A DNA stretch of 64,000 nucleotides from Candidatus Woesearchaeota archaeon. GTDB lineage: Archaea; Nanobdellota; Nanobdellia; SCGC-AAA011-G17; UBA489. The stretch is taken from assembly GCA_018302985.1 (NCBI GenBank), contig JAGVZA010000015.1, positions 1,471-65,470 of the forward strand. The letters are read 5' to 3'. The notes under the pieces are model-generated. The model saw only the letters and a program-made list of their open reading frames with translations. It was not told the DNA's origin and made no database searches. The stretch's first letter is position 1; each line of letters starts with the position of its first letter. Shown one piece after another: positions 13,547-60,802 of the stretch. The translations under genes and the position numbers were made by a program.

Positions 13547-13548
13547 GG

Positions 13549-20435: not shown

Positions 20436-20596
20436 GATACTGAGTTTGATACCTTTCTCCTTCGTTTAAATAGTTTATTATGAGTTTCCATAAAGCTTTT
20501 ATACCTCTTTCTGTGCTTTCTTTTAACGCTGTCAAAGAAATACATACTATTTCTGAGATAAGTGTCATTTACATACAGATAAGGAGAGTACATACA

Positions 20597-37138: not shown

Positions 37139-37753
37139 ATGGACCTTATTCCTGATTTTTTGGCTAATTTATCAAAAGAGTTAACTGTAGTCTATGGTGG
37201 ACCAGCAACTGGAAAAACCTTACTCTGTCTGACTGCTGTAGCACAAGTTGTCAAGCAAGGCAAGAAAGTTATTTTTATAGATACAGAAAAAGGATTTTTC
37301 ATTGAACGTTTTCAACAAGTCTTGGGAAGTACAGAGAGCAAATATTTGGACAATGTTATTGTTATGAGGCCAACTAGCTTTAAAGGAGAGCATGTAATGA
37401 TTGTAAAGCTTAAACAATTTTTACAGCAACCGAAAATAGGACTCATAGTTGTTGATACTTTGAGCTATTTTTATCGACGACTACAAAAAAATAAATTATT
37501 ATTAGCTAATCGTATGTTAATCAACCAGATCAATACTTTACGCAGTTATGCTACTCAAGTACCAGTCATTGTCACCAATCAAGTCTATATGGATATTGAA
37601 ACACAACAACAAAAAATCGTAGGCGGAGAGATTCTTTCCAAATCTGCACAAAGATTTATTGAAATGCAAAAAGAACCGAGAAAGATTATTCTCAAACAAC
37701 CAGAGAAAAAAGAATCACTCTTCACTATCGACGCTAGTGGCTTTCACTTTTGA
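37139..37753 (+). CDS. radB: RadB recombinase paralog
   Basis: Walker A GGPATGKT, IFIDTEKGF and Walker B LIVVDTLS. 204 aa. Confidence 0.8.
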   Translation: MDLIPDFLANLSKELTVVYGGPATGKTLLCLTAVAQVVKQGKKVIFIDTEKGFFIERFQQVLGSTESKYLDNVIVMRPTSFKGEHVMIVKLKQFLQQPKIGLIVVDTLSYFYRRLQKNKLLLANRMLINQINTLRSYATQVPVIVTNQVYMDIETQQQKIVGGEILSKSAQRFIEMQKEPRKIILKQPEKKESLFTIDASGFHF

Positions 37754-39823
37754 CTGCTTTTCCTGCTGCTTCTTTAACCATTCTTCTTTGAGCTTGCATT
37801 GTTTGTTAATACAATAGTTGAAAGGTCGTTTTCCTTGACGAATAATCAATACTTCTGGAAAATTACACTCTTTACAGAAATTTTTTGTTGGTTTTGGAAG
37901 TCCTTGCGGCAATCCGAACGTAGCTTTACAATTGGGATATGCTGAACATCCTATAAAGTTACTTTTAAATCTTGGAGAATATCTAATCTGTAGATCTCCT
38001 TTTTTACAGAGAGGACAAGGAGCGATGGCGCTCAACTCAGTTCGTGTTTCTTTAGTCGCTAGCAACAATCCCTGGCCAATTTCTTTCTCATGCTTCTTGA
38101 AATTAGCTAATATTTTTGTCAGCTCTTTTTTAGCTTCCTCGATAATTTCTTCTGGTTTTCTTTTTTCTTCACGAATTAATTCAGTTTCCTCCTCAAAGTG
38201 ACGAGTTAACCGCTCATCAATAATTTCCGGACAATATTTTTCCAAAGTTTCAATAGCCGCAACACCTAATTTTGTAGCTTCAATAGATTTTTCATGCACA
38301 TATTGCCGCTGATATAAGGTATCCACAATTGAACTTCTTGTTGATTTTGTTCCAAGATTTCTTTTCTCGAGCTCCTTGATAATGGAGGCAGGAGTATATC
38401 TCTTTGGAGGCTTGGTTTGATCTTCTAGTTGTTCTATCTTAGGATTTTTAATCTCTGTTCCTTCATTCATAGGTGGAAGCTCTTCGTCTTTTTCTTTAGC
38501 ATAAGCGCCATAAAATGTATACCAACCAGAGACTTTGGTAACTGAACCGCGAGCAATAAAATTTTCTCCATTGACGTCAATCTCCGCTTTCATCAACTCA
38601 TTGACCGCAGGATCCGCGAAAGTAGCCAATGTTCTTCTAGCAATGAGATCATACACCTTCGCTTCCCTCTCCGCCATCTTCTTAGGAAGTTCTCCTGTAG
38701 CGTGAACAGCTGGGTGCGCAGGATCTACTTTAGGACCTTCATTTGGTTTCAACATTTTTTTCTTTAAGAGCTCCGCGCTTAATGCCTTGTAATCACTTTG
38801 TTTTCCTAGATCTTGAATAATTTTTTTGTAGTCTAGAGCTACTGGTAATTTATTTGAACTGGAACGAGGATAAGAAATATATCCGTTGAGGTATAATCCT
38901 TGTGTAATGGACATCGTTTCCTTAGGGCTGATACCAAAACAGCGATAAGCTTCAGTTTGCAAGGTGGTTAAATCAAATGGAAATGGCGGCAGTACAGTCA
39001 TTTCTTTTTTCTTGACTGAGGAGACTATAGCTTTTTTTCCCTGTGTTTTTTTAAAAATTGTTTCTGCTTTTTGTTTTTCCCAGAATTTTCCCTCTTCATG
39101 CCACGCGAGCACTGGCTCTTTATCTACTTCACCTTGTAATTTTATTTGCCAGAATGTTTCCGCTTTGAATTTATTAATTTCCCGATCTTTATCTACAATA
39201 ATCTTTAATGCTGGACCTTGGACACGACCAGTAGACAATATTTTGAACATACCCGCAGTCTTTAACGCTAGGGTTAACGCGCGCGAATTATTAATACCAT
39301 AAATCCAATCCAATTCGTGACGAGTCAATCCAGCGTTCGCCTGCCCCCAGTCCATATGCTTCATTTTATTTTGATAAGAGGCTATCAAGTCTTTCTTTGT
39401 CAGTGTCGAGAACTTCATGCGATGAGCGTCTTTTTGACCACAGGCAAAACGAATAGCGTTCAACCCCAGAACAGTTCCCTCGTCATCGAAATCTGTACAG
39501 ACCGTGAAATCATCCGCGTTTTTCGCTAATTTTTTGAGCGTGTCAATAAAGTCTTTGGTCTGGCTAGCACGTTTTTGCACCTCATAGATGGGCTTCCATT
39601 CATAACTAAACGTTGGATATTTCCAGCCATTCTTCTCTTTCTCGACTAGACCATAGAGATGCCCTAAACAACTGGCAATAACAATTTCTTTTCCGTTATG
39701 AGTAAATGCAAAATAGGTTACTTTCTTGTTTTTTTCTTGTGAAACTTTTCCCTCCGCCAAAGCTTCCGCTATCTTCTTCGCGCTTGTTGGCTTTTCCGCG
39801 ATAAGCAGCTCGTATTTTTTCAT
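37715..39823 (-). CDS. topA: type IA DNA topoisomerase (TopA/Topo III-like) with C-terminal zinc ribbons
   Basis: Toprim start LLIAEKPTSAKKI, DDEG, active-site region GYISYPRSSS. C-terminal CPLC...CSAYPNC and CKEC...CINKQC. Confidence 0.9.
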   Translation of the reverse strand: MKKYELLIAEKPTSAKKIAEALAEGKVSQEKNKKVTYFAFTHNGKEIVIASCLGHLYGLVEKEKNGWKYPTFSYEWKPIYEVQKRASQTKDFIDTLKKLAKNADDFTVCTDFDDEGTVLGLNAIRFACGQKDAHRMKFSTLTKKDLIASYQNKMKHMDWGQANAGLTRHELDWIYGINNSRALTLALKTAGMFKILSTGRVQGPALKIIVDKDREINKFKAETFWQIKLQGEVDKEPVLAWHEEGKFWEKQKAETIFKKTQGKKAIVSSVKKKEMTVLPPFPFDLTTLQTEAYRCFGISPKETMSITQGLYLNGYISYPRSSSNKLPVALDYKKIIQDLGKQSDYKALSAELLKKKMLKPNEGPKVDPAHPAVHATGELPKKMAEREAKVYDLIARRTLATFADPAVNELMKAEIDVNGENFIARGSVTKVSGWYTFYGAYAKEKDEELPPMNEGTEIKNPKIEQLEDQTKPPKRYTPASIIKELEKRNLGTKSTRSSIVDTLYQRQYVHEKSIEATKLGVAAIETLEKYCPEIIDERLTRHFEEETELIREEKRKPEEIIEEAKKELTKILANFKKHEKEIGQGLLLATKETRTELSAIAPCPLCKKGDLQIRYSPRFKSNFIGCSAYPNCKATFGLPQGLPKPTKNFCKECNFPEVLIIRQGKRPFNYCINKQCKLKEEWLKKQQEKQSKVKATSVDSEE

Positions 39824-40443
39824 GAAGCCCGCATCTTCTTACTTTTCTTCGAAGAAGCAGTTGTATTTTCTGACAAAACACCATCAGTAAGGTCCAAAAG
39901 AAGGTTGTTTAAACACTTGTCTTTTCCAGCTTCTCGAGAGATGATAATCGCCGGAATATCCTCCTTTCTGATCTTGCTAAAAAAGTTATAGACAAATCTG
40001 TCCACGATATTGCGCTCATTGTCTAAGAACAAAGTGTCAATATTATCAAAAATAAGAAGCAGACTTTTTAGCTGTTTATTATTCTTTGCCAGAAATTTCA
40101 TTGCTAGAGAAAATCCAGTAACAATCCCATTTAAATCTGCAGGAGAATCGACGAAGTAACAATTATCGAGCGGCTTATTGCGTGTCATCTTCTTACTTTT
40201 CGTATCGATAATATAAAATCTGTCATCAATCTTCGCTCTAGAATCTTTTATGGCACCGCATAGCTCCTCGGCAAGCTTTATTGTTGAAATATAGATTATA
40301 CCTACATTTTTATTTTGTAAATATGAAAGATATTTATAGAGGGACTCTTCGTAGCCTTCAGACCCAACTAAACATATCTTGATGTATTTGTTTGCTAAAA
40401 TACTTTGTGTGTCATCTTCATTAATCATCTTCTCGTTCTCCAC
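39820..40443 (-). CDS. degenerate KaiC/RecA-like protein lacking a Walker A motif
   Basis: RecA-like strand order (ICLVGSEGY..., IIYISTIK, LLLIFDNIDTLFL as a Walker-B-like strand, PAIIISRE) but no GK[ST]. It looks paralogous to 52911-53438. 4-nt overlap with topA. Confidence 0.45.
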   Translation of the reverse strand: MENEKMINEDDTQSILANKYIKICLVGSEGYEESLYKYLSYLQNKNVGIIYISTIKLAEELCGAIKDSRAKIDDRFYIIDTKSKKMTRNKPLDNCYFVDSPADLNGIVTGFSLAMKFLAKNNKQLKSLLLIFDNIDTLFLDNERNIVDRFVYNFFSKIRKEDIPAIIISREAGKDKCLNNLLLDLTDGVLSENTTASSKKSKKMRAS

Positions 40444-40478
40444 TCTCCAATTTATAAGCTTTCTGCGTACTAAGATTA

Positions 40479-41066
40479 TTACTCTTCATATTTATATTTT
40501 AGAATAAATGGATATGTTCTCAGATAGAACCAAAGCAAGAACGCTAATGAGGCCCCTAAAAAAGCCAATAATCCGTCAAGAAAAACCAGATTGAGAACTT
40601 GTATTATTTTCAACTTTGTGAGATAAAGAGATAACATCAGACCAGTCCATAAAGGCATGGTTGCGAATGCTGTACTTGCCGCAAGTATAACTCTTAGAGG
40701 ATCCATGTTTATTGCTTTAGTAAACAACCAATGTATTATTTCAAAACAAAGTCCTACAAGACCCATAATAATATATCTTTTTACTCCTAATCCCGCAAGA
40801 TCTGGCAGAGAAGGGATTAATGTTACAGCTATAAGACTCACAATACCTACAGCTCCAAATTTGTTTATGAAAAAAGCAGTGAAGGTCGCAAAAACCACCA
40901 TTAAAATAAATAGAAGAGCATATCCTGTAAGACCTGGAATCGCTGATCCTAAGGCATGAGCAGTAGCCCATAGAATGACTATGAACAGAAATGCGAAGAG
41001 ATCCTTAATACTATATTTAAAATAATTTTCCTCAGATACTTCATCAGAGTTATTAGACTCCTTCAT
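40479..41066 (-). CDS. polytopic membrane protein (about 6 TM)
   Basis: 195-aa hydrophobic ORF. 14-nt overlap with the upstream 524-aa gene. Confidence 0.55.
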   Translation of the reverse strand: MKESNNSDEVSEENYFKYSIKDLFAFLFIVILWATAHALGSAIPGLTGYALLFILMVVFATFTAFFINKFGAVGIVSLIAVTLIPSLPDLAGLGVKRYIIMGLVGLCFEIIHWLFTKAINMDPLRVILAASTAFATMPLWTGLMLSLYLTKLKIIQVLNLVFLDGLLAFLGASLAFLLWFYLRTYPFILKYKYEE

Positions 41067-42627
41067 TCTTATCCCTCTTTATGTTGAACTTAGATATGAC
41101 TTGCTTATAAACTTTCTCTATTTTTGTAGGAACTTCATAACGCACTTTAAGATTTTCCAAGACTGGCAGAGTTCTCTTTATTGCTGAAATTTTTTCCATA
41201 TATTTATCTAATTTAATGTGGTATGTAGGATCATCAATAGATCCTGTTGAAAAGCGATCATCTTGTGATTTTTTAATAAGATCTATTAACACTTTATTTT
41301 CTAACTCAAGGTCTTCTATTTTTCTTGTTACTCTTAGGAGCCTCATTCTTCTGAAAAGAACAGGCCCGAAAACGATGCTACAAATAATTAGGAAAGATAA
41401 AGAGAACTTATGTTTTCTTATAAATCCAGTACTCTCTTTTGCTAGGACTCCGGTCACTGCCAAACGAGCCAAACCAAGCTCCAAGGATGAATCTGCCTTG
41501 CTCAACAGCGTTTCTGCCTCATCGTAACGCTCTTCTGAGAATGACTTCAAAGCATCATTATATGCATTTGTTGATTCTGAAGTGTTAACTCCACGCTCAT
41601 TATAAAACCCTAGTTTTTTGTAGACATTCTCAAATGTAGCATTGATTCTATAAATCTGTATAGTAGTATAATTTATCTGAGAGATAATCCCTTTTATGGA
41701 GACAAAATCAATCCCAACATATTCATCTCCTGGCTTCCTTTCTACATTTCTTTTAATATTTTTTATAAACTTGATATAGTCTGTGTCATTCTGAATCTCA
41801 TCCCATTCTAGAATGTCTTCAAAATAAGCAACATATATCTCCTCTTCAGCTGAGACATAGACGTCAGTCAAGAAGTCTGTTGAAAAATTATTTGATCTTA
41901 TCTCCTCCAAGATCTTATACCCTTCATATACTTTATCTACACTCTTAATGTCCATTTTTACCTTTATCTTTATTGCTGTCTCCCTCGCAAGATCATATTT
42001 CCAAAACTCATAAAATGCGGCCATCTGTTCTGATAGTTTTTTGATGTCTTCTGTCACGACTTCTGTGTCGTTGAATTGTTTGTTTACTTCTTCAAAAATA
42101 AACTCATAAAGAGATCTAATCTCATAAAGCTCGTCTTTTCTTTTTTCAAAATCACTCGAGATATTCTTTAATAAGTTATAGTCTTTGCCAAACAATGATT
42201 TCTTGCCATTTGTCGGAAGAATATATTCTATCATTCTCATTCTTCTCTCATCTGTTGACTTTCTGTACTTTATACTGATATCGAGCATAATATCAGAAAA
42301 ACTCTTTTGGAGGATCATAGATCTCATTTCAGCAACATAATTCTCTATAAGCACATCTGTAAAATTCTCTCGCTTAAGATACTTCAATTCATTTTCTGCT
42401 GTGAGCAGCAATTCGATCATTTCCAACTGCTTTTCATTAGGAACACTTGCTACATCAAGAAGACCCTCTTCCTTAGATTCTTGCATGATTTGTTCTTGAT
42501 CTGCTAGCACTATAGAACTTGCAACCAAGATAATGAAAAAGACAAAGACAAAACTTTTTTTTAATAGAACTACTCTTTTAGATGTTGTCTTCTTTTCTTC
42601 CGAAAAACTCTTCATTTTCCCCTCCAC
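41053..42627 (-). CDS. bitopic membrane protein; helical ectodomain, TM, cytoplasmic tail paralogous to the giant protein tail
   Basis: N-terminal TM/signal FVFVFFIILVASSIVLA, a long helical region, then TM FSLSFLIICSIVFGPVLF. The tail motif is QDDRFSTGSIDDPTYHIKLDKYMEKISAIK. 16-nt overlap with the giant gene. Confidence 0.55.
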   Translation of the reverse strand: MEGKMKSFSEEKKTTSKRVVLLKKSFVFVFFIILVASSIVLADQEQIMQESKEEGLLDVASVPNEKQLEMIELLLTAENELKYLKRENFTDVLIENYVAEMRSMILQKSFSDIMLDISIKYRKSTDERRMRMIEYILPTNGKKSLFGKDYNLLKNISSDFEKRKDELYEIRSLYEFIFEEVNKQFNDTEVVTEDIKKLSEQMAAFYEFWKYDLARETAIKIKVKMDIKSVDKVYEGYKILEEIRSNNFSTDFLTDVYVSAEEEIYVAYFEDILEWDEIQNDTDYIKFIKNIKRNVERKPGDEYVGIDFVSIKGIISQINYTTIQIYRINATFENVYKKLGFYNERGVNTSESTNAYNDALKSFSEERYDEAETLLSKADSSLELGLARLAVTGVLAKESTGFIRKHKFSLSFLIICSIVFGPVLFRRMRLLRVTRKIEDLELENKVLIDLIKKSQDDRFSTGSIDDPTYHIKLDKYMEKISAIKRTLPVLENLKVRYEVPTKIEKVYKQVISKFNIKRDKNEGV

Positions 42628-45600
42628 TTAGGAGGCAGATTTTTCCTAACTGCATCAACTTCTTTTGCTGTCTCTGGGAAGTAGGCTTTCAACTCTGCTT
42701 CAGATAATCTTCTTACATCTGCTCTCTTTTTGATATTCTCCTTGTTCTGTTGTTGGTTCTTTATAGACTGATCTGGTTTCTCAGGCAATCGCTTAGGTGG
42801 CAAACACATACTTTCAGGTTCTTGTTTTTTGAAGACGTTCCTCTCTCTTTGAGGCTGATCTTTTGTCACAAAAATACTTCTTTCTTGTTTCAGCGATTCT
42901 TGCTTCTTCTTTCTAAAGATTATCGACTTTATCCTCTCAACTAGGTTTCTTATAAAAAATCCCTTCTTTCTCTGATCAGCCCATGTTTGCTGAGGCATAC
43001 TAGAGGATATTTCTTTTCTTTCAGACTTAACTCTCCTTATAAGATTAATTCCTTTTTGTATACCTATCAGACTTACTCTCTTTATAAAAACAGTAAAATC
43101 AATTGTCTTCTGCACTATCTTTCCTTTAGTCGTTGTTTTTCTAGTTATATTCTTCTTCTGTATTTTGGCTTCAAGAATTGCACTCTCTTCTTCTATTTCT
43201 ACAAGGCTTCTTCTAATAATTCTCATTTCATTTTCAAAATCTGTCTTGGTAATATCCTTACGAACATAATACCTCTCCTGAAGCGCCTTGAGATTATTAG
43301 AAACGATTTCTTTCTCTTTCTGCACCTTCGCCAACTCTTTAGTAATGCTAACTACATATCCTACTCTTTGTGTTCTTAATTTTCCTTTCAATTGTTGAAT
43401 AGCACTCAATCTTCTTTCATAGTGCTCCTTATCCCTATGGAACTCATAATCACTAATATCTTTGGTTACATAATATCTATCTTGATTCTCCTTCAAGAGC
43501 TTGTGGATTGTCTCCTCCTCCTTTTCATAATTCTTTTTCCTGAATTCAATAATCAAAGTAATAATCTCCACATAGCCCATATAAGAACCAGCACATAAGA
43601 GAGCAAGGAAGAATAGTATCGCCCACCAATAATTTATAACAAATTTAATAATGTTAATTCTGCTCTTGGTCTCCAAAATATAAGTAAGCTGGGCTTCATT
43701 CAATGATTGCAAAGCAACATCGAAATCTTCTCTTGCAAAAGCTTCTTTGGCTACATTAGCAAGCTGTCTTGTTCCTGCTATAACTATTCCTTTCTTATCA
43801 GCCTCTTTTATTTTAAGATCTAAGTCTTTTAGAAGTTCTAAAGACTTGAAAGATTTCTCTTTCTTATCAAGAATTTGCTTTGCTAATTGCCCTGCCAGCT
43901 TAAATTTTCCATCTCGATAAGCTTTTTTAGCTTGTTCTAAGATTACAATACTTCTACTTACGGGTATTTGCTGCTGATCCATCTCGACAATTGCTTTTTC
44001 TGCCTTGTCTATAGCTTCCTTAATCTCTTCTTCAGATTCTTCTTTAATCAATAAAGTTATAATTCTTTTATCTGTAAGTGTTCCTTTTTGTCCATTCGCT
44101 GTAACTTCTGCTGTAATCAATGCTTCGAGCGTGTAAGTACTTTCTTCAAGATATCTTGGAGCGTCTACTTGAATTCTGAATGCTTTTGTTTCTTTATATC
44201 CTATATTAGTTAATGTTCTTGACAATACTTTAATATATTTTGTCAAAAATCCAGTAATCTGTATATTAGCCTCATTAATTACAGATCCTGGTTGAATATT
44301 GTTAACCTCTAATATGAATTCATTACTTCTTCCTCTTTCCAAGGTTATAGTCTTAGAACTTTCAGATCTAAAGAGGGATTGAGAACTAATAATTCCTCCA
44401 CCACCGCCTCCACCACCGCCTCCACCTCCACCTCCACCTCCACCGCTGCTACTAGCTCCACTACTCGCTACTTCATTAGAACAATCTGCATCTACAGCTC
44501 TAAAACATCCAGAACCGCAAACACCATCTGCACCATTACAGTCTACGCTTAAATTATAAGACAAAGTATCATTATTTGATTCAGACAAACCAGTAATATT
44601 CAAGAAAGTATCTGTTCCATTTTGATCGTAAGTAGTAGTTGTACCTACAATCACTGTGATATTATTATATAACAAGTCATTAACGCCTAAAGTATCATTT
44701 GATACTGATAGATTTCCAGAACTAATTGAAAATCCTGTAGGCAAGACCCATGCAACAGACACATTATCTACAGTATCATTTCCGACATTTTTCGCATATA
44801 CTTTGTAAGTTTCTACAGATGATTGTTGCACGCCAAATGATCCTTCTTCAAAAGTTAAGTCTATGTAAGGTCCTGGAGAAATTGAAGTCAAAGCCGCAGT
44901 AACATTCTCAGATTCAGGAGAGGTTGTTTGATTTTCATTTGTCGCATTAACCATAATATTAATAGTGTCAGATTGAGATGTTGAAGCTCCTGTCGCATTT
45001 ATCTCGACAGTAAGCGTCTCTCCTGGCTGCAATTCCACAGGCATAGTCTCATTAAAAAAGATCAAAGCATAATCCGCAATAATTGATGTGAAATTGATAG
45101 GAACATCTCCAGTCACATTGAATATGAATATTCCTAAAGAAGTATTCTCACTGAATTGAGCAAAACTTTCCCCCAAATCAGTAGGCGTTACGTTCCATGT
45201 ATAATCATAATCGATAACTACATTTTGTATAGTCCCTACATTCTCATTTCCCGCAGTATCATTAGCGAAAACAGTATAGTTAATAGTCCCATTTCTGTCT
45301 GGAGTAAATGAAACATTCTCGAATAAAGAAGCCCCGCTATTAAACACTAGAGTTGTATTTGTAAATTCAGTTTCATTGTCATATTTCCAAGAAAAGATCG
45401 CTGTATCTACAAGAAGCGTAGCATCAGAAACATTCGCAGTTATATTAATAATTAATCCAGGATCTAGATATTCTACATCGCTCGGACTTAAAGTAATCTC
45501 ATTGATTACTGGTCCTGCAGTATCGACATTAAAATTTGTTGTTATTGACTGATTTTCATTGGCCGCATCGTCATTACAAAGAATATAACCCGTGTGCCCC

Positions 45601-48600: not shown

Positions 48601-48752
48601 TCTGCTGCTGCAAGTGCTGCAAATGCGCTTGAGAGTACTGTAATGTTACTTAAATTTGCTGCATAGACATGAATAAGGTCTCCTATACTTCCATCTATCT
48701 GTGTACTAGTCAGAGTACCGTCATTTCCTGTGGTGCTGCTAGAAACATCCAT
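42612..48752 (-). CDS. giant surface adhesin, C-terminal 2046-aa portion (Big_1/invasin-like repeats, Ig-like N-glycosylation-rich domains, Gly17 linker, TM, 311-aa cytoplasmic coiled-coil tail)
   Basis: Repeats of NP.VTAVVTD..G.....I.FS.S.GSMS...G.T...G.V.S.Q.GG.(L/V)G. Many NxS/T sequons. CNGADGVCGSGC. TM VINYWWAILFFLALLCAGSYMGY. The ORF begins mid-domain with no signal peptide. Confidence 0.8.
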   Translation of the reverse strand: MDVSSSTTGNDGTLTSTQIDGSIGDLIHVYAANLSNITVLSSAFAALAAADTAVAWYDVSTNNLLTIPITRLTKTIVTTSAAAFILSDNTPNNTTGFFTDIFQQSNNFSANITPVNFSSGDIVNIFYGTTTPVLDAAIVINQSALTDINTVAAQNNATNFFAFATNGTNPIVTAVVTDSDGYGIPDITVSFSSSVGTMSPTSGVTSLDGTVSSTQSGGTLGDTITVSSDNLTDIAVITNESINVAAPDTVYTWFDSNLMVAYTVTVNTTTKVLAGATTTTYTLDSFATYPLFSATISGEPAYEQNATQGTPSNITLTPRSYRDNDRVRVDVGTTTFSPDNFIRLRTDPSSKQYLFAFATSDANPIVTAVVTDENGTAVQNAAISFSASAGSMSIDSGVTEYNGTVTSTQSGGAVGDVIVVNATDINQSVYIYTNLSLVVDANARAFQWYDPVESVLYSATVSKTRDDTYNVLVTANTVSATVFDRTPKNCAVALQTCVSVSSVEPQTNTSAASIYIPRGTVTSDDFIQIGITTTTPGNDGLSIFTENSLNRFFAYADGDVNPNVTAVVTDADGTGLEGIEVNFSASAGSMSVTTGYTGPDGVVTSIQTGGALGNTITVESGALGIRKIITEEDDVGATDISYAWYDRSQQRVRMVTVNRTTNTLTNSSIYTTTLRDTTPESGVVITAIGALLQTNTTEGVQIIVPHTEAKGDKIAIATTLTTASVDAHLVIGDYVSGVTVEFTSTAGSMDVSSSTTGNDGTLTSTQIGTSSDADLINVYSANLSNTTLRVTQVESVTNSDFAIVWFDNVSRIYFASVDAITRVLSSGSSASVFGYDTTPNNDNTFSQGLVVQQGLNYSGNVSISVDRASAGGGIVYFDFSGISGFFQAFLEIGDVVVPFLSVVNPTNGSFFNISTVELNISVSDDLEVDQCFYDLNSAAVNTTVNGCTNVSLTSIEGENNITVYANDTTGNLQSEYIIFTVDTVEPNIVISNPNNLDNITSSTVTFTYIVTDALDTLLNCTFFIDNTITTTNSSVDNGTSTSLAATSVANGGHTGYILCNDDAANENQSITTNFNVDTAGPVINEITLSPSDVEYLDPGLIINITANVSDATLLVDTAIFSWKYDNETEFTNTTLVFNSGASLFENVSFTPDRNGTINYTVFANDTAGNENVGTIQNVVIDYDYTWNVTPTDLGESFAQFSENTSLGIFIFNVTGDVPINFTSIIADYALIFFNETMPVELQPGETLTVEINATGASTSQSDTINIMVNATNENQTTSPESENVTAALTSISPGPYIDLTFEEGSFGVQQSSVETYKVYAKNVGNDTVDNVSVAWVLPTGFSISSGNLSVSNDTLGVNDLLYNNITVIVGTTTTYDQNGTDTFLNITGLSESNNDTLSYNLSVDCNGADGVCGSGCFRAVDADCSNEVASSGASSSGGGGGGGGGGGGGGGGGIISSQSLFRSESSKTITLERGRSNEFILEVNNIQPGSVINEANIQITGFLTKYIKVLSRTLTNIGYKETKAFRIQVDAPRYLEESTYTLEALITAEVTANGQKGTLTDKRIITLLIKEESEEEIKEAIDKAEKAIVEMDQQQIPVSRSIVILEQAKKAYRDGKFKLAGQLAKQILDKKEKSFKSLELLKDLDLKIKEADKKGIVIAGTRQLANVAKEAFAREDFDVALQSLNEAQLTYILETKSRINIIKFVINYWWAILFFLALLCAGSYMGYVEIITLIIEFRKKNYEKEEETIHKLLKENQDRYYVTKDISDYEFHRDKEHYERRLSAIQQLKGKLRTQRVGYVVSITKELAKVQKEKEIVSNNLKALQERYYVRKDITKTDFENEMRIIRRSLVEIEEESAILEAKIQKKNITRKTTTKGKIVQKTIDFTVFIKRVSLIGIQKGINLIRRVKSERKEISSSMPQQTWADQRKKGFFIRNLVERIKSIIFRKKKQESLKQERSIFVTKDQPQRERNVFKKQEPESMCLPPKRLPEKPDQSIKNQQQNKENIKKRADVRRLSEAELKAYFPETAKEVDAVRKNLPPKWRGK
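44394..44444 (-). repeat. (GGN)17 coding tract = Gly17 linker
   Basis: Plus strand is TCC/ACC/GCC x17, in frame within the giant ORF (SSSG17IISS). Confidence 0.9.
46451..46549. repeat. 99-bp perfect repeat, copy 1 (in-frame, internal to the 2046-aa ORF)
   Basis: Identical to 48695-48793 by manual alignment. Encodes (V)SGVTVEFTSTAGSMDVSSSTTGNDGTLTSTQI. Confidence 0.9.
46874..47072. repeat. 199-bp repeat (6 mismatches) with 49128-49326
   Basis: Manual alignment. Both copies encode NPNVTAVVTDADGTGLEGIEVNFSASAGSMSV.TGYTGPDGVVTSIQTGGALGNTITVESGALGIR. Confidence 0.85.
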
Positions 48753-48793
48753 AGAACCTGCAGTGCTGGTGAACTCTACAGTAACTCCAGATA
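48695..48793. repeat. 99-bp perfect repeat, copy 2 (spans the junction of the two giant ORFs)
   Basis: Identical to 46451-46549. Identity ends at 48793, exactly where the reading frame changes. Confidence 0.9.
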
Positions 48794-51297
48794 AGGTTTG
48801 ATGGCGCTGGCAGATTAATAATTAGATCTATGGAAGGTGTTGTTGTTGTTGTTCCAATAGATAATCTATCACCTTGTCCATAAGTACCTGGTGAAACAAT
48901 AATATCTGCAGGTGTTGCGTTGTTCTGTGTGGTTGCAGAACCTGTAGTGAGGAGGACTCCGTTATTTAGAGTTCTATCTAGAGCTGTTGCAGTAATTGTG
49001 CCTGCATTTGCTAGAACATTTGTTGTTCTATTCACTGTGGCAACATTCACAGTTCTCCTTATTTTATCAAACCAGCCATAGGATCTATCTATTGCATTGA
49101 CATCATAAGAGTCATCAACAAATACTGTTCTTATTCCTAGAGCTCCGCTTTCTACAGTGATAGTATTGCCGAGAGCACCGCCAGTCTGGATGCTTGTTAC
49201 TACACCATCTGGACCAGTGTAACCAGTTGCAACGCTCATGGATCCAGCAGACGCAGAAAAGTTGACTTCTATACCTTCGAGACCAGTACCATCAGCATCT
49301 GTGACTACTGCAGTCACATTAGGATTAGGTCCTCCACTTGCGAAAGCAAAAAATTCATTAGAGCCACTTCGCGCAAGAATAAGTTCTCCATCAGTACCTG
49401 ATGTTGTTGCCACTGCTATTTCTATCCAGTCATCCGATAGATATGCATTCTGCGCTGCATAGGAGGTTGCTGGAGATATATTTGTTTGTTCCAGTAAACC
49501 ACCTATACCAAGACTCGTGATTGATGCAGTAGCCCCATTATAAGGAGTCCTATCATAAGCTGTAAATGTTGTAACTGTTGATTCTGCAAGAACATTATAG
49601 GTATCACTTGGATTTTTTATGACTGTAGCGCTATAAATCACAGATTCAACAGGATCAAACCACACAATAGCACGAGCATTTGCATTGACTGCCTGAGAAT
49701 TATTTACATAAATCAGTACAGTCTGATTGAGGTCTGGCGCAGAGATTACAATAGAATCTCCAATACTTCCGCCACTTTGCACACTTGTTGTTGTACCATT
49801 ATAACTAGTCAAACTATCAGCAATGCTCATGGATCCAGCAGATGAACTAAACGTGAGATTTACTCCTTGTACAGCTGTGCCATTATTATCAGTTACTACT
49901 CCTGTTACTGTAGGATTAGGACCAGCAGTTGCAAAAGCAAAAAGGTGATTTGTTTCTCTATTTCTCATAAAGACATATCCATCAAGATCGCCCGTTGGAG
50001 TTCCAGCAGTACGAACACGATCATTCTCGCCATATGTTCTTCTGATTAAAGGAAAGTATGCGGGCTCTGTATCAGACTGAGCATATGTTGAGTCTGTAGA
50101 AAAAGCTACTAAATTATTTGGATAACCATTGGTGTCTTCAGCAGTAAATGTAATAGTGTTAGCAGCATTTGCAATTATATTACTGACAGTATGAACAGAG
50201 TAAACTGTTTGATTATATTCATTGAACCATGTAACTAATTTACTGTTTGCTGCTGTTGCAGTAGTTGCATCTGCTGTGACTATGGTGACTGAGCTCAGAT
50301 TATCTGCACTAATAGTAATACCATTTCCTAAACCACCTCCGGATTGTGTGCTTGTAGCGATACCTCCTTCGTTTGTGGCACTAGTACTTTGGGACATAGA
50401 TCCAGAATTTACACTGAAACTAACTGTTTTTCCAGGAACACCGTGGCCAAAGGCATCGACAACTATTGCTGTGACAGTGGGATTAGTACCTCCATTTGCA
50501 TAGGCATAAAGAGTTGTCGGTCTTTGCTCTAGCAACTCGCCGAAAGCCGGATCATTTTGTGTAATACTGAGAGAGTATTCTTCTCCAGGATGAATATCCA
50601 TAATTTTCTTCCATTCACCAAAACACCTTCTAGAATCAAAGTCCCATTCCTTACATTTGTATACTACAGATCCTTCAGCAAGAATAGTAAGTGTTGCTTC
50701 TTCGAAATCTGCAGCTGTTGGATCAATAGCGTATACTCTTTCCCAGTTTCCTATTCTTGGTTGATCTGGAATATCTGCCGGAGGATTATCTATTCTAAAT
50801 ATTGCATCTTTTTGTTCTACTTTGAGTCCTTTTATTGCTATATTTTTTATTGATTGTTTTGAATCATCTAAACTTATATTCGCATCATAAGTATCTTTCT
50901 TAACCTTTGTTCTAGTTCCTGACTCCAACTCTTGCACAACTTTTTCTTGATCATTATATAACTCAACATCTCCAAAGATTGTCTTTCCAGTTTTATCTTC
51001 GATCTCAATTTTAAAATTCGCTATTTTTGAACTCTCAGCAGCAGAATCTCCCGACCTAAAAATAATCAAAAATAAAAGAAGTATGATGAAACTAGTGAAG
51101 AATGTACTAAAGAACACCCTCCCTTTTTTATCTTTTTTAGTAAGTATAATATCTTTTCTCTCTTGGATAATAAGAGAATCTTTTGTATGTTCTTTAAACA
51201 GTACTTCAGTGCCGTTGTCCCAATTCTTAAATTCTGCAATTTTTTTCGGTAGGGTCAGAATAAGCTGACCATTAGATAACTTTTGTATTTTAACCAA
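48739..51297 (-). CDS. giant surface adhesin, N-terminal 852-aa portion (AbrB-like N-domain, TM anchor, Big_1 repeats)
   Basis: TTG start. MVKIQKLSNGQLILTLPKKIAEFKNWDNGTEVLF (SpoVT/AbrB-like), TM FFSTFFTSFIILLLFLIIF, and three Big_1 super-repeats. The last 17 aa are out-of-frame nonsense (IWSYCRVHQHCRFYGCF). Confidence 0.8.
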   Translation of the reverse strand: MVKIQKLSNGQLILTLPKKIAEFKNWDNGTEVLFKEHTKDSLIIQERKDIILTKKDKKGRVFFSTFFTSFIILLLFLIIFRSGDSAAESSKIANFKIEIEDKTGKTIFGDVELYNDQEKVVQELESGTRTKVKKDTYDANISLDDSKQSIKNIAIKGLKVEQKDAIFRIDNPPADIPDQPRIGNWERVYAIDPTAADFEEATLTILAEGSVVYKCKEWDFDSRRCFGEWKKIMDIHPGEEYSLSITQNDPAFGELLEQRPTTLYAYANGGTNPTVTAIVVDAFGHGVPGKTVSFSVNSGSMSQSTSATNEGGIATSTQSGGGLGNGITISADNLSSVTIVTADATTATAANSKLVTWFNEYNQTVYSVHTVSNIIANAANTITFTAEDTNGYPNNLVAFSTDSTYAQSDTEPAYFPLIRRTYGENDRVRTAGTPTGDLDGYVFMRNRETNHLFAFATAGPNPTVTGVVTDNNGTAVQGVNLTFSSSAGSMSIADSLTSYNGTTTSVQSGGSIGDSIVISAPDLNQTVLIYVNNSQAVNANARAIVWFDPVESVIYSATVIKNPSDTYNVLAESTVTTFTAYDRTPYNGATASITSLGIGGLLEQTNISPATSYAAQNAYLSDDWIEIAVATTSGTDGELILARSGSNEFFAFASGGPNPNVTAVVTDADGTGLEGIEVNFSASAGSMSVATGYTGPDGVVTSIQTGGALGNTITVESGALGIRTVFVDDSYDVNAIDRSYGWFDKIRRTVNVATVNRTTNVLANAGTITATALDRTLNNGVLLTTGSATTQNNATPADIIVSPGTYGQGDRLSIGTTTTTPSIDLIINLPAPSNLIWSYCRVHQHCRFYGCF
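49128..49326. repeat. 199-bp repeat partner of 46874-47072
   Basis: See partner. The last 96 nt are identical. Confidence 0.85.
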
Positions 51298-51456
51298 GGA
51301 GAACCTTCTTTAGACTATTAGAAAAAATACTATTATAATTAATATTATAAATACTATTAAAAGAGATATTTTTATTCATGTCTTTTTCAATATTAACCAT
51401 TTATAAGAACTATATAAAGATTATGTTTTTTGGGCTGTTAATAAAAGGAAATAGTA

Positions 51457-52485
51457 TTAGATTTCCTTAACAAAAACTTCTTGGTCTGGGAAAATTTCAA
51501 CACCGACTCCTTTTACTATGCGCATTGCAACTACTTTTCTTTGATGTGCTACGCCCCTCATTTTTAGAACTTCAATTGCACGTTCTCTGATATTTTGTCT
51601 TTGAATAGAATAAAGAATAATCACACCATCTGCAAGAAATTCTTCAGTACCTGTAGGACTAAATTGTTTTGGAATCTGTGCTGTTTCAGTGATCAGGAAT
51701 GTTGTTGCTCCAATTTCCTCGAAATAACGAAATAATTTTTCAATATAAACTCTGTAAGTATCTTTTCTTCCAATAAATGCCGCAGAAATGGCAGTTAAGG
51801 AATCTACGAAAATAAACTCAGGAGTATAATCTTTTGGTAAAATAACAGGTTTGATATCAATTAAAAGTTCTCCTTTTTCTTTAGCTAACAACGCATCAAC
51901 ACTTCTCATAATATCAAAAGGGTTTAATCTTAAAAAAGCTAATTTCTCTTCTCTAATATATCTTTTCGCATCCCATCCAAAATCATTCATGTGTGAAATT
52001 AATCTCAGTTCTGATTCTTCGAGAGTTAGATACAAACATTTCTTTCCTTGCATACATGCATTCGCCATTATCTGTAAATTAAGAATTGTTTTTCCACTTC
52101 CAGTTCCACCACAGACAATAACTGCTGCACCTTTAGGAATTCCCTCTACAAGCAAACTATCCAAACCAGGGATTAGGGTCTTGTTAAATATATTTCCTGT
52201 TTCAGGCATTTTTCTATTTTTTATTATGGGATTAACATCTATTTGTGGATTAGTGAGTATTTCTTTTTTATCCTTTGGATCTTCACTAGTATCTGAATTT
52301 AATGCTGCACGCATAACTTTGATAATCTTTTGAAAGTTGAACTGTTTATTTTCTTTATTGATTTTTGTTGTTTTTTCATTGATTATGATAGGTTTAGGCT
52401 TATTTTCGACTTTTCTTTTAGAAAGATTTACATGTTTATGCTTAGAATTATCCTTTTTTAAGCCTTTTTTTTTCGTCGACATCAT
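51457..52485 (-). CDS. KaiC-like RecA-superfamily ATPase (intact motifs) with Lys-rich N-terminal extension
   Basis: Walker A CGGTGSGKT, catalytic LTLEESE, Walker B FIFVDSL, and C-terminal EVLKMRGVAHQRK. There is a disordered N-terminus of about 100 aa. Confidence 0.8.
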   Translation of the reverse strand: MMSTKKKGLKKDNSKHKHVNLSKRKVENKPKPIIINEKTTKINKENKQFNFQKIIKVMRAALNSDTSEDPKDKKEILTNPQIDVNPIIKNRKMPETGNIFNKTLIPGLDSLLVEGIPKGAAVIVCGGTGSGKTILNLQIMANACMQGKKCLYLTLEESELRLISHMNDFGWDAKRYIREEKLAFLRLNPFDIMRSVDALLAKEKGELLIDIKPVILPKDYTPEFIFVDSLTAISAAFIGRKDTYRVYIEKLFRYFEEIGATTFLITETAQIPKQFSPTGTEEFLADGVIILYSIQRQNIRERAIEVLKMRGVAHQRKVVAMRIVKGVGVEIFPDQEVFVKEI

Positions 52486-52651
52486 AAAACTACGAATATA
52501 CTAGTATAAAAAATTATCCTTAATGCAGGGTGTGGGACAGAAAAGACCTGACAGAGTAGACACAGCCAACATGTTGACACATGTGTGGCATAATCTCTAT
52601 TGGTTAGGCTGAGATAAGTTTATTCTGTCCCACACCCTAGAGCACCGAAAA

Positions 52652-52661
52652 GTATATAAAG
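52652..52661 (+). promoter_or_regulatory. TATA box inside the element driving the 54-aa ORF (leaderless)
   Basis: GTATATAAAG is centred about 28 nt upstream of ATG 52684. Confidence 0.45.
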
Positions 52662-52683
52662 CTATCTATAGATAACTATACTT

Positions 52684-52848
52684 ATGCCGAGAAAAATCGA
52701 ACTCGATCATGGTAAGCTTCAACTTACTGAAACAAAAGTAGAGGGATTCCTCGAAAGAACAGTCACCCCGATAGGCACATCCGCTAAAGCAGACGTGCCA
52801 AAAAGATACATCGGAAGAAGAGCATATGTGATAATAATCAAATATTAG
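52684..52848 (+). CDS. 54-aa AbrB-like small protein resembling archaeal 'putative transposon-encoded protein' (DUF2080)
   Basis: MPRKIELDHGKLQLTETKVEGFLERTVTPIGTSAKADVPKRYIGRRAYVIIIKY. Below the 60-aa ORF-track cutoff. Visibly higher GC than its surroundings. Confidence 0.5.
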   Translation: MPRKIELDHGKLQLTETKVEGFLERTVTPIGTSAKADVPKRYIGRRAYVIIIKY

Positions 52849-52910
52849 TTATTTCTGTCCCACACCCCTTAATGCAAACTTAAATAAACAAGAGAAATAG
52901 AGGTTATTAT

Positions 52911-53438
52911 ATGGTTCAGGAACTAGAAAAGATGGGGAAAGAAATTATAAATGTCTTAATGATTGTAGATGCTTCGCAATTACATCAAGTTTTAGCTGAT
53001 ACTATTGCTCATTTTTCCAGAAATGGAATGCCCGGTTTATTTTTTTCAACCACTAAACCAACAAGATTTTTTCAGGAAGAACTCATTAAGAAAAAAGTTG
53101 ATGTTGAAAAGATTATTTTTTTGGAAAGTATGGTTGATGAATCGAACATTTATAAAAATGTTGTTTTTGTTCAGACCTTGGAAGATCTTACAGGAATTAG
53201 TATAGTTTTAGAAGCTTTTATACAAGAACCCTCTCAAGAAAAATATGTATTAATAGATTCTTTAGATCTTTTAAAGATGTATAATAATCAAGAAATTGTT
53301 TTCAATTTTGTTGAACAGATCACTCAACTTTGTACGCTCAATAAAACTAATTGTATTATGATGACTAGTAAAAAAGACGAAGATGGTTTTGTTACTAAGA
53401 TTAAACCTTTTTTTAAAAAAGTTTTATTTAAAGTATAA
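52911..53438 (+). CDS. degenerate KaiC/RecA-like protein lacking Walker A
   Basis: VLMIVDAS..., GLFFSTTKP, YVLIDSLDLL (Walker-B-like) and NCIMMTSKK. It looks paralogous to 39820-40443. Confidence 0.45.
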   Translation: MVQELEKMGKEIINVLMIVDASQLHQVLADTIAHFSRNGMPGLFFSTTKPTRFFQEELIKKKVDVEKIIFLESMVDESNIYKNVVFVQTLEDLTGISIVLEAFIQEPSQEKYVLIDSLDLLKMYNNQEIVFNFVEQITQLCTLNKTNCIMMTSKKDEDGFVTKIKPFFKKVLFKV

Positions 53439-53439
53439 C

Positions 53440-54099
53440 ATGATCAACTTAGGAATTCCTGCATTGGATAAGGCATTTAAAGGAGGTTTAGATAATGGAA
53501 AGATTATTTTAATTAAATCTAAACCTAGAGCTGGAAAAATAGTTTTTGGCTACAAATTTCTAGAACAAGGACTAAAACAAGAAGAAAATTGTTTTTATTT
53601 TTTTCACAAAGCTAATACACAAGAGGCGATAGAAGAAACAGAAAATTACGGTCTTTCTACTAAAAAGCTCAAATTTATTAATAGTAATATGATTTATGGA
53701 AGAACTACTTCTCCAAATGTCGTTATTTGTGATCTTAATAGCCCTTCAGCCATAGATGTTCTTGATGGGTTGTTTCTAGATAAAGGGAGTGTCCGTGGAG
53801 TAATTACAGTTATTAGTGTGCTTTTTAGCAAAGGATTATTTTCCATTGCTTATTACTTGTTGAATCATCTCAGAAGATTAGTAGATCAAAACCCTCATTG
53901 GACTTTTCTGCTTACCATAGAACAAGGAGCGATTTCAGAAGAAGAGATGCAAGAAGCTGAAAAATTGGTTGATGTTGGTATAGAGCTCGTCGAAAAAAAA
54001 CCTGGAGAAGGAGATTTACTAATTTATAAGAGCTATAAACCTGTTACGAAAAAATCATTTAATTATAAAGTAAAGACTAATGAATTTATTGTTACTTGA
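53440..54099 (+). CDS. KaiC/RecA-like protein with degenerate P-loop
   Basis: KaiC-type N-terminus GIPALDKAFKGGLDNGKIILIKSKPRAGKIVF. The P-loop is SKPRAGKI instead of GxxxxGK[ST]. Start at ATG 53440, 1 nt after the upstream stop. Confidence 0.55.
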   Translation: MINLGIPALDKAFKGGLDNGKIILIKSKPRAGKIVFGYKFLEQGLKQEENCFYFFHKANTQEAIEETENYGLSTKKLKFINSNMIYGRTTSPNVVICDLNSPSAIDVLDGLFLDKGSVRGVITVISVLFSKGLFSIAYYLLNHLRRLVDQNPHWTFLLTIEQGAISEEEMQEAEKLVDVGIELVEKKPGEGDLLIYKSYKPVTKKSFNYKVKTNEFIVT

Positions 54100-60195: not shown

Positions 60196-60218
60196 ATAAG
60201 AACCGTCGTTTTGCTCTT

Positions 60219-60794
60219 ATGAGCCTTATTAAAGACTATATATCTGACCGTCGGCATAAGAAATTAGAGGAGATTAATAGGGCTTTAGAACAACTTAAAC
60301 ATGAAAATGTTGCAACTGACGCGCTCAAACCGAAAAGCACTTTAACTACCCCTGTATCTCATCCACCTATGCGCACAGGCAAAGATTTACTATTTATAGG
60401 TATTCTTCTTGTTTGTGTGATTGTATTAATTGTTACAAGCTTTTACTATAGAAGCCAATATGCTACTCTCAATGACAATTACCAAGAGAAAGTAAATGCT
60501 CTTAGCAAGTTAGAAGCAGATCTTCAAAAGAAAATCGGTGATCTTGAAACTACCCAGGAAGAACGGGATAGACTTGAAGCTTCTGAAGAAACACTCCAGG
60601 AAGAACGGGATAGACTTGAATCAGATGTTGAAGACTTAGAATTAGAAATAGAGACATTAGAGGATGATATCACAGTTAAACGCGCTGAAGTTGATAATCT
60701 TACACGAACTATAAATCAACAACGCAATGAAATAGATCGCTGGAAAGATTGTATTGAAGACGAACTAGATCAAAATTTAAGTGTGTGCGATTAA
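60219..60794 (+). CDS. bitopic coiled-coil membrane protein
   Basis: One TM (LLFIGILLVCVIVLIVTSF), then heptad-rich repeats (QEERDRLEASEE / QEERDRLESDVE). Confidence 0.5.
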   Translation: MSLIKDYISDRRHKKLEEINRALEQLKHENVATDALKPKSTLTTPVSHPPMRTGKDLLFIGILLVCVIVLIVTSFYYRSQYATLNDNYQEKVNALSKLEADLQKKIGDLETTQEERDRLEASEETLQEERDRLESDVEDLELEIETLEDDITVKRAEVDNLTRTINQQRNEIDRWKDCIEDELDQNLSVCD

Positions 60795-60802
60795 CATGAG
60801 CT

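Follow-up and report, generated by a model that had tools for sequence, protein, structure and literature searches.

What connects a giant surface protein of an archaeon to the KaiC-like ATPases that are encoded around it? This question is raised by a stretch of 64,000 nucleotides (nt) from a Candidatus Woesearchaeota archaeon (assembly GCA_018302985.1, contig JAGVZA010000015.1, positions 1,471 to 65,470; the whole stretch is called the window in the following). In this window one intact KaiC-like ATPase gene and three genes for inactivated KaiC-like proteins (iKaiC) flank the genes of a giant protein, of a bitopic membrane protein of 524 amino acids (aa), here called the partner, and of a small polytopic membrane protein. 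We could confirm that this block of KaiC-like genes around the giant surface protein is real and more than a chance neighbourhood. Across DPANN phyla the genes of KaiC and iKaiC are linked, as a module, to those of a membrane unit of two proteins, the outside of which is variable and glycosylated whereas a motif on its inner side is conserved. As to the function of this coupling we lean towards the view that the window carries a local, reduced version of a DPANN-conserved cluster in which a KaiC/iKaiC hub is coupled through cytoplasmic tails to the surface unit made up of the giant protein and its partner.

Coordinates and overlaps were taken from a scan of the window for open reading frames (ORFs) and the identity of the domains from Pfam scans. 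All coordinates and overlaps given for the ORFs of the block in the original prediction, which had been made from the sequence of the window, were reproduced. On the minus strand the intact KaiC-like ATPase gene (51457-52485, 342 aa) is followed by the gene of the giant protein (42612-51297, about 2,948 aa, N-glycosylated as judged from its sequons), the partner gene (41053-42627, 524 aa, or 520 aa in other gene calls), which overlaps the giant gene by 16 nt, the gene of the polytopic membrane protein (40479-41066, 195 aa), which overlaps the partner gene by 14 nt, and a gene for an inactivated KaiC-like protein of 207 aa (39820-40443; 202 aa in other calls), the stop of which overlaps the start of topA by 4 nt. 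Divergently from the 342-aa KaiC gene, on the plus strand, two further genes encode an inactivated KaiC-like protein of 175 aa (52911-53438) and a degenerate KaiC-like protein of 238 aa (53383-54099). In the window the giant gene is split at 48739-48752 into two ORFs of 852 aa (48739-51297) and 2046 aa (42612-48752), for which Pfam reports Big_1 domains (5e-17 and 5e-11). Ten co-localized genes had been counted originally; we count eight ORFs corresponding to seven genes and in addition a 54-aa DUF2080 gene.

Evidence for the coupling comes from the comparison with other genomes. A scan with the KaiC alignment of one genome per GTDB species yielded 80 DPANN loci, labelled in their records as Woese-, Pace-, Nano- and Aenigmatarchaeota, and these loci were translated and searched with the proteins of the window. 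Close relatives, in which KaiC is 74 % and the homolog of the 207-aa protein 43 % identical, share the entire region with the window, from RadB and topA to serS and the MoxR operon, a finding that on its own proves little about linkage. On a 294-kb contig with a KaiC of 63 % identity an iKaiC-sized gene, KaiC, a giant protein of 2,538 aa and a partner of 494 aa are kept together and the outer flanks are entirely different (TFIIB, tRNA-splicing endonuclease). A homolog of the giant protein or of the partner is recognizable in 37 of the 80 KaiC loci, and these 37 loci show three arrangements: the giant gene comes after KaiC in 25 of them and before KaiC in nine, and in three loci the two genes are on opposite strands. 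The distance between the giant gene and KaiC is below 500 nt in 16 loci. Among the 27 loci with at least 6 kb of sequence on both sides of KaiC a recognized giant/partner pair is found within 10 kb in 16, and four further loci have a sequon-rich giant ORF beside KaiC which is either cut by the end of the locus or went unrecognized or is too divergent. With one pair per genome of about 1 Mb we estimate the chance of finding the pair within 10 kb at about 2-4 %. The observed rate is 59-74 % of the 27 loci and thus far above this estimate of a few per cent, and we therefore conclude that the linkage between KaiC and the giant/partner genes is not random.

The genes that flank the block in the window are rare in the other loci (serS is present in four and topA in three). 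In a Woesearchaeota locus of 72 % identity (L009) the order is permuted, with two divergent KaiC-like genes and KaiC placed after the homolog of the 207-aa protein, and topA is absent. A reciprocal search of metagenome contigs starting from the partner found a giant ORF with the tail motif described below immediately upstream of the partner in all 16 loci of at least 6 kb; KaiC is present in 11 of these, and most of the others are truncated. The original prediction had regarded a missing association in related genomes as the sign of a random neighbourhood; what is found is an association that recurs with different flanks and in different gene orders. As judged from these comparisons the conserved core of the cluster is made up of KaiC, one to three iKaiC, the C-terminal module of the giant protein and the paralogous partner. 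The set of one active and three inactivated KaiC-like proteins, on which the original prediction had been built, is indeed present in the window; as a description of the conserved core it is too narrow, since the core needs only at least one iKaiC.

What do the giant protein and its partner have in common? By sequence the partner is a paralog of the membrane-proximal C-terminus of the giant protein, and both are type-I-like membrane proteins that share helical ectodomain motifs, a transmembrane (TM) helix and a cytoplasmic motif. In the partner a predicted N-terminal signal anchor (42502-42555, minus strand as for all parts of the two proteins) is followed by an all-alpha ectodomain, a predicted TM helix (41353-41409) and a cytoplasmic hairpin tail (41056-41352) with one copy of the motif. 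In the giant protein the second TM helix (TM2, 43563-43652) leads into a K/R-rich cytoplasmic tail of 316 aa (42615-43562), and two tandem copies of the hairpin motif are located at 43392-43625, running through TM2, and at 43161-43349. The alignment of the tails gives the motif E..VL..L.KK.Q..RF....I....Y.IR..KY.ER..EIK..LPVLE, in which a leucine, a glutamine and two tyrosines are invariant. When the 37 loci were searched with a hidden Markov model of the TM helix and tail, 33 giant proteins, mostly with two tandem copies, and 26 partners were found. Pfam has no match for the partner, its family or the tail motif, and no significant match for the whole cytoplasmic tail of the giant protein (tails searched to E<=10). 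A likeness of the tail motif to SHOCT domains, which had been considered, is not supported by this search.

The partner family is large. An exhaustive HMMER search of 1.84 billion clusters at 50 % identity retrieved 933 representatives (E<=1e-3), typically of 300-350 aa, whereas a word-index search with the partner alignment gave only four proteins. AlphaFold2 (AF2) predicts the partner as a purely helical protein (pLDDT 77), the TM helix of which extends into a long cytoplasmic helix that is paired with a second helix. In Aenigmatarchaeota-type loci giant protein and partner are fused into proteins of about 1,390 aa (L020:2365-6591; L087:10732-14910), in which the C-terminal module of the giant protein is followed by a second, partner-like module; these fusions are therefore predicted to pass the membrane four times. 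In another locus (L055:1109-3805, minus strand) the partner and a homolog of the 195-aa membrane protein form a single protein of 898 aa. Six loci from marine and other metagenomes (L120, L128, L129, L140, L141, L143) encode proteins of 100-210 aa that consist of only a TM helix and the tail motif. Since neither a giant protein nor a partner ectodomain nor KaiC is encoded in the vicinity of these tail-only proteins, the motif also exists outside the cluster.

The 195-aa protein goes with the partner in some lineages only, and its homologs adjoin the partner in nine loci. Five to six TM helices are predicted, and FE, N and W residues are conserved over eight aligned homologs. A search of the PDB with the profile of this family retrieved only YkoE (5edl, the S-component of an ECF transporter) with a weak E-value of 0.014 over 150 residues, and one of the eight family members matches Pfam ABC_cobalt (6.5e-4). 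The protein possibly has a fold like that of ECF-transporter S-components.

On the cytoplasmic side the 342-aa protein is clearly a KaiC-like ATPase. It matches Pfam KaiC (PF06745) with an E-value of 3.2e-48, above the gathering score, and its motifs are complete (Walker A GGTGSGKT, Walker B FIFVDS and the catalytic EE pair), so that the intact KaiC-like ATPase proposed for this gene was correctly recognized. A K-rich N-terminal extension of about 100 aa precedes a single domain of about 240 aa, and this ATPase core is 49-84 % identical to the DPANN orthologs. The protein stays below every NCBIfam equivalog cut-off including those of the clock KaiC (117 bits versus a cut-off of 408 bits) and of ArlH; with the ArlH model the 342-aa protein scores 57 bits and the 238-aa protein 27 bits, the cut-off being 215 bits. 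None of the four KaiC-like proteins attains the curated value for either clock KaiC or ArlH. In PADLOC only a P-loop-level match of KaiC to mad8 (4.9e-6) was obtained and none for the other six proteins of the block. The reading of the block as a defence island was rejected, there being no match to a defence system in PADLOC.

The three remaining KaiC-like proteins have degenerated to different degrees. The 238-aa protein still matches Pfam KaiC above the gathering score (4.7e-10). Its Walker A motif reads SKPRAGKI in place of GxxxxGK[ST], just as had been noted before, and in addition the Walker B aspartate is replaced and the catalytic glutamate pair is lost. Its homologs in close relatives are degenerate as well, whereas more distant KaiC-like neighbours of 222-230 aa retain GGPGTGKT and the aspartate. 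The 207-aa protein has only weak Pfam matches (DUF7504 1.4e-4, KaiC 0.06), and the same is true for the 175-aa protein (DUF835, DUF7090, KaiC). Both fall into one family together with small proteins that adjoin KaiC orthologs elsewhere. The consensus of this family has no P-loop (Walker A motif); 45 of its 55 members match Pfam KaiC with E<=0.01 and many match DUF7504, DUF835 or DUF7090 as well. With the family profile the top sequences of the PDB are KaiC (4e-5), FlaH/ArlH (9e-4), PH0284 and SSO2452. The 207-aa protein, the only one of the four KaiC-like proteins to be modelled, gave an AF2 model with pLDDT 80 and pTM 0.81 from an alignment of seven sequences, and Foldseek retrieved PH0284, KaiC, SSO2452 and PH0321 from the PDB as its best matches (probability 1.0, TM-score about 0.6). 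A comparison of the iKaiC family with the KaiC alignment by hhalign found the correct register with a low probability (5 %, E=0.0075), and the identity of the family therefore rests on Pfam, the PDB search and Foldseek. Judged by these profile matches and the model, all three degenerate proteins are members of the RecA/KaiC fold, and the missing P-loop, Walker B or catalytic glutamates mark them as inactivated. The original description of these proteins as KaiC-like, which hinged on such a kinship to the RecA fold, is hence upheld.

The iKaiC genes take recurrent positions. A gene of the 175-aa type adjoins the KaiC orthologs in 42 of the 80 loci, and an iKaiC gene after the partner gene is seen in several lineages, the 207-aa type lying directly after the partner also in L005, L007, L009 and L054. 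Aenigmatarchaeota-type loci (L020, e.g. L020:347-1371, L029, L051, L056, L057, L061, L064, L067, L082 and similar ones) have, besides the main KaiC gene, another gene for a KaiC-like protein, of 222-230 aa and with its P-loop intact. This second gene is co-transcribed with the gene of a conserved protein of about 110 aa and runs divergently from the main KaiC gene. Four of ten of these 110-aa proteins weakly match MazE/AbrB-like domains (best 2.9e-3). A weak match to MazE_antitoxin is also what they share with the AbrB-like N-terminal domain of the giant protein in the window, and hhalign gives this pair a probability of only 3 %.

The conserved tail of the giant protein has to be seen against the remainder of the molecule. 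Two TM helices are predicted at residues 61-79 (TM1, 51061-51117) and at about residues 2603-2632 (TM2), and 84 of the 86 N-x-S/T sequons are found between them, in a part of about 2,500 presumably extracellular residues; one sequon follows TM2. Because of this distribution both ends of the protein are predicted to be cytoplasmic, in agreement with the topology originally proposed. From the N-terminus the protein starts with a predicted cytoplasmic AbrB/SpoVT-like domain (51148-51297; Pfam MazE_antitoxin 7.6e-4, below the gathering score). TM1 is followed by an array of Big_1 repeats (46400-50500) in units of about 195 aa, in which the repeat families D2 and D3 recur with a spacing of 567-594 nt. 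The C-terminal module (43053-46205) comprises Ig-like and NPCBM_assoc-type domains, a Gly linker (44385-44444), a juxtamembrane helical domain, TM2 and the two tandem hairpin motifs.

These parts are conserved very differently. Residues from about 850 to 1900 of the 2046-aa ORF match the giant proteins of 30-34 loci, the conserved part being the C-terminal stretch of about 1,000 aa. For the Big_1 array there was no match outside the close relatives when the DPANN KaiC loci were searched, and the AbrB-like N-terminal domain is restricted to the window and its close relative L008, most other giant proteins starting with an ordinary signal anchor. In a domain census of the giant proteins NPCBM_assoc was found in 24 of 29, Big_13 in 10 of 29 and Laminin_G_3 in 6 of 29. 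By these comparisons the Big_1 array and the AbrB-like domain are lineage-specific and the outer part of the giant protein is its fast-evolving part. The emphasis of the original prediction on a Big_1 adhesin with an AbrB-like domain thus fell on features that are confined to the window and its closest relative. A PDB sequence search with the 2,948-aa protein returned linker artefacts only. A relative of 43-74 % identity (L005) encodes a second giant protein of 2,928 aa beyond RadB (13363-20549, minus strand), which has no Pfam match and is not matched by the adhesin of the window; at the corresponding position the window has a gene of 124 aa and CDC48.

The giant protein had been described as two ORFs, and we think that it is most likely one gene of 2,948 aa. 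The JGI contig Ga0209542_10000618 (L001), which is 99.97 % identical over the region, contains a single ORF of this length. Compared with this contig the window lacks 84 nt at 46440-46550 and 77 nt at 48686-48793, in two copies of the repeat D4. The two missing stretches, which are found nowhere else in the window, each encode the start of a Big_1 unit (…GPNPNVTAVVTDSGGNGV…). They start with CTAC, and both deletions stop before TATCTGGAGTTAC, at the same point of the repeated Big_1 unit. The two ORFs meet exactly where a repeat of 108 nt has its border; a second copy of this repeat lies at a distance of 2,244 nt. Several independent assemblies break inside the giant gene, and a look-up of the two split products found no identical gene calls elsewhere. 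Since the deficits of 77 and 84 nt sit at the repeat, the JGI contig has a single ORF and other assemblies break there, the split is most likely an assembly collapse at the repeat; as an alternative the deletions could represent a real frameshift, a recombination product or a phase variant.

Which cellular process does the KaiC module belong to? The neighbours of KaiC in the relatives give an indication. Clustering of the neighbouring proteins by BLAST over the 80 loci gave the giant/partner family in 55, iKaiC in 46, a family of about 550-1,100 aa in 34 and a family of about 120 aa in 32 loci. Pfam identifies the third of these as Cache-HAMP histidine kinases or Cache-HAMP proteins and the fourth as receiver (REC) domains. 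Together with hemerythrin, which is encoded by a separate gene or fused to KaiC, receivers and the Cache-HAMP histidine kinase are linked to KaiC in 32-34 related loci; in other genomes KaiC is also fused to helix-turn-helix domains. A typical locus of the Pacearchaeota has the order Zn-ribbon, REC, REC, iKaiC, Cache histidine kinase, hemerythrin, Cache-HAMP, hemerythrin, KaiC, giant protein and partner, and the same order from signalling genes to partner is found in independent metagenome contigs. A fixed run of genes upstream of KaiC is present in many Pace- and Woesearchaeota (L028:2649-9732; L096, L097, L100), the kinase there being of the dCache-HAMP type. We had also considered that the upstream genes, which by their size resemble ArlH, ArlI and ArlJ, belong to a type IV pilus or an archaellum; Pfam gave receivers, Cache-HAMP kinase and hemerythrin instead, and this reading was rejected. 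The original prediction had supposed an ATPase-controlled apparatus for host attachment. Since most relatives add hemerythrin, a Cache kinase and two receivers, the system fits signalling better than a mechanical, ATPase-driven attachment apparatus.

Taken in this way the giant protein and the partner would form a complex in the membrane, and the hairpin tails of both would serve as docking sites for a hetero-oligomer of KaiC and iKaiC. The ATP-bound or the phosphorylation state of KaiC could then couple events at the surface, such as the contact with a cell or a substrate, to signalling inside the cell, in either direction. In most relatives the hub would be wired to hemerythrin, the Cache-HAMP histidine kinase and the two receivers; the genome of the window may have lost or relocated these sensor genes and carries extra dead KaiC subunits instead. 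Several points weigh against this docking model. The contact of KaiC or iKaiC with the tails is a prediction, and no fusion of KaiC to a tail was found among 151 representatives of the partner family. Foldseek found no structural relative of the partner model in the PDB (best E 0.27, to non-specific helical proteins), and the function of the partner is therefore unconstrained. No sensor kinase, receiver or hemerythrin is encoded within the 64-kb window. About a quarter of the well-sampled KaiC loci have no giant neighbour, and the loci are phylogenetically related, so that inherited gene order adds to the counts. A more specific form of the docking model takes the unit as an integrin-like contact receptor of DPANN archaea, a heterocomplex of giant protein and partner whose tails recruit KaiC and iKaiC, so that binding of a host cell would be translated into an ATPase or phosphorylation state of KaiC, or the other way round, and in most lineages this would feed the pathways of hemerythrin, Cache kinase and receivers. 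This form, and with it a role of the system in host attachment, is a tentative suggestion which we hold with considerable doubt.

The same genes can be read in other ways. Giant protein and partner might be the main envelope proteins of the cell, arranged as canopy and stalk similar to a surface layer (S-layer), with KaiC regulating their expression or glycosylation indirectly and without touching the tails. The heavy load of sequons, the two membrane anchors and the Ig-like and NPCBM_assoc domains are all typical of archaeal surface proteins, a large and a small gene with overlapping stop and start occur as one pair per locus, and the giant gene is preceded by an AT-rich, TATA-like spacer, which suggests a promoter of its own. 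A structural anchor, however, needs no conserved cytoplasmic motif of about 60-80 aa with invariant residues, let alone two copies of it in the giant protein; moreover, the linkage to KaiC and iKaiC persists through rearrangements, and neither the PDB search with the giant protein nor Foldseek with the partner revealed a sequence or fold similarity to known S-layer proteins. We regard an envelope of this kind as unlikely, albeit worth keeping in mind. That the neighbourhood simply reflects the inherited gene order of compact genomes, without functional coupling, agrees with the close relatives, which share the whole region from topA, RadB and serS to the MoxR/Bat operon, and with the density of DPANN genomes, in which overlapping genes such as iKaiC and topA are common. 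Beyond these relatives the core is kept where the outer flanks are not, three arrangements keep the genes together, the permuted locus L009 has no topA, the search anchored at the partner confirms the link, and the pair is seen near KaiC at a rate far above that estimated for chance. A mere inheritance of gene order is thus highly improbable. It is the duplicated conserved cytoplasmic motif together with the linkage through rearrangements that disfavours both of these explanations.

As a further possibility KaiC with iKaiC as adaptors could act as an ATP-driven motor for the assembly, insertion, quality control or turnover of a protein of about 3,000 aa with two anchors. In 25 loci the gene immediately preceding the giant gene encodes an intact ring ATPase of the RecA fold, an iKaiC gene comes after the partner gene in several lineages, and the polytopic 195-aa protein could be a part of such a machine. 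This protein is, however, present in only nine loci, the frequent hemerythrin, Cache histidine kinase and receiver genes nearby point to signalling, and KaiC-type proteins are not known to act as protein translocases. We consider the motor improbable and keep the docking of KaiC and iKaiC at the tails as the working model.

How does the cluster relate to known systems? Archaeal KaiC-like ATPases with inactivated paralogs have been proposed as signalling hubs (Makarova, Galperin, Koonin 2017, as cited in PMC5847659). As far as the concept is presented there, the cluster shares with it the single-domain KaiC-like ATPase and the dead paralogs; this pairing of active and inactive KaiC is present in the window, and the linkage to sensors and two-component proteins is seen in the related loci and not in the window itself. 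It differs from the hub by the conserved giant surface protein and the paralogous partner with a new cytoplasmic motif. ArlH (FlaH) is likewise a small protein of the KaiC fold that docks on a membrane-associated surface machine, and the iKaiC profile and the 175-aa protein weakly match FlaH. ArlH, however, binds ATP and works together with ArlI and ArlJ, whereas the small proteins of the block have no P-loop and the 342-aa protein scores far below the ArlH cut-off; homologs of ArlI and ArlJ were not found among the window ORFs covered by our partial scan. With the KaiABC clock of cyanobacteria the 342-aa protein shares the RecA-fold KaiC domain, Walker A and B and the catalytic glutamates, but the clock protein has a pair of domains (CI and CII, about 500 aa) where the DPANN protein has one of about 240 aa. 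The KaiA and KaiB families did not turn up among the Pfam matches of the ORFs that were scanned or among the gene calls of the JGI contig, no targeted search having been made.

On the surface side the tandem Big_1 Ig-like domains forming an extended extracellular stalk recall the intimin/invasin adhesins. The giant protein differs in being held by two alpha-helical TM anchors with both ends predicted to be cytoplasmic, and Big_1 is not the conserved part of its family; the Pfam scans of the adhesin ORFs showed neither a beta-barrel nor a LysM anchor, and the giant protein is not a member of the intimin/invasin group. The S-layer pair SlaA/SlaB of the Sulfolobales, in which the gene of a large surface protein is the neighbour of that of a small helical protein anchored in the membrane, is an analogy: the side-by-side arrangement is the same, but there is no similarity in sequence or fold, and in the DPANN cluster both proteins are membrane-anchored and both have a conserved cytoplasmic domain. 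Other DPANN archaea also have giant proteins, for example the SPEARE protein of Nanohaloarchaeum antarcticus, which is very large and variable, extracellular and presumed to be involved in cell-cell contact. Such proteins resemble the giant protein as very large variable surface proteins of small-genome archaea, and we know of no report that places them in a KaiC/iKaiC neighbourhood or next to a hairpin-tail partner. A full-text search of the literature gave no description of such a cluster or partner class, which agrees with the original statement that no described system combines these elements as far as the searchable literature goes; a prior mention in the supplements of the 2017 study on the KaiC hub is possible. 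We regard the archaeal KaiC hub as the known part of the system, and the family of its membrane partner, the tail motif and the wide occurrence of the association as new.

The other genes of the window are housekeeping genes and code for MCM, topoisomerase VI, an RFC-like AAA+ protein, FEN1, HerA, CDC48, RadB, topA, serS and a class I tRNA synthetase, which by its size is IleRS-like. The fifth RecA-fold gene (37139-37753, plus strand) is most likely RadB, as judged by its NCBIfam RadB match (7.8e-40; 137 bits, the curated cut-off being 172 bits) and a Pfam Rad51 match above the gathering score, and is a housekeeping gene outside the block. With topA (37715-39823, minus strand) it shares 39 nt, the two genes overlapping at their 3′ ends, and in L005 and L007 its position is syntenic. 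Beyond serS, as seen from the block, a MoxR/Bat-like operon (55967-63389, plus strand) encodes in this order a BatA-VWA protein with DUF7406/7407/7408 (595 aa), a VWA protein (813 aa), a coiled-coil protein of 191 aa, a DUF7502 protein (263 aa) and a MoxR AAA+ protein (315 aa); it is kept in the close relative L008, where a DUF58 gene ends the operon.

Between KaiC and the 175-aa gene, within their divergent promoter region, there is a miniature mobile element (52528-52867). It is bordered by perfect terminal inverted repeats of 16 nt (GGGTGTGGGACAGAAA / TTTCTGTCCCACACCC), a third copy of 21 nt being present at 52618-52638, and contains the DUF2080 'transposase-associated' gene of 54 aa (52684-52848, plus strand). 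There is no transposase gene within the element or its intergenic region, and the insertion is absent from L008. Genes identical to those of the window occur in Rifle-type groundwater metagenomes, and the NCBI lists an identical copy of the 524-aa partner as a hypothetical protein of Candidatus Woesearchaeota archaeon.

KaiC-like ATPases are proposed as the main signalling hubs of archaea, and few of their membrane inputs and outputs are known; how DPANN archaea recognize and hold on to other cells is likewise an open question. From the locus analyzed here a large uncharacterized family of membrane proteins emerges, which comprises 933 clusters at 50 % identity and is characterized by a conserved motif on the cytoplasmic side. 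Its genes are linked to that of KaiC, which ranks among the most conserved proteins of DPANN archaea, and within the giant protein it is the region exposed at the surface that evolves fast. From this a testable hypothesis results, namely that the tails of surface proteins may be docking sites for KaiC and iKaiC. Even with a purely regulatory link, the giant protein and its partner would remain strong candidates for envelope or adhesion proteins in the Woese-, Pace- and Aenigmatarchaeota. If, on the other hand, the unit were an integrin-like receptor, it would be the first transmembrane input or output device for the archaeal KaiC hub and would give molecular access to the way in which episymbiotic archaea sense a host.

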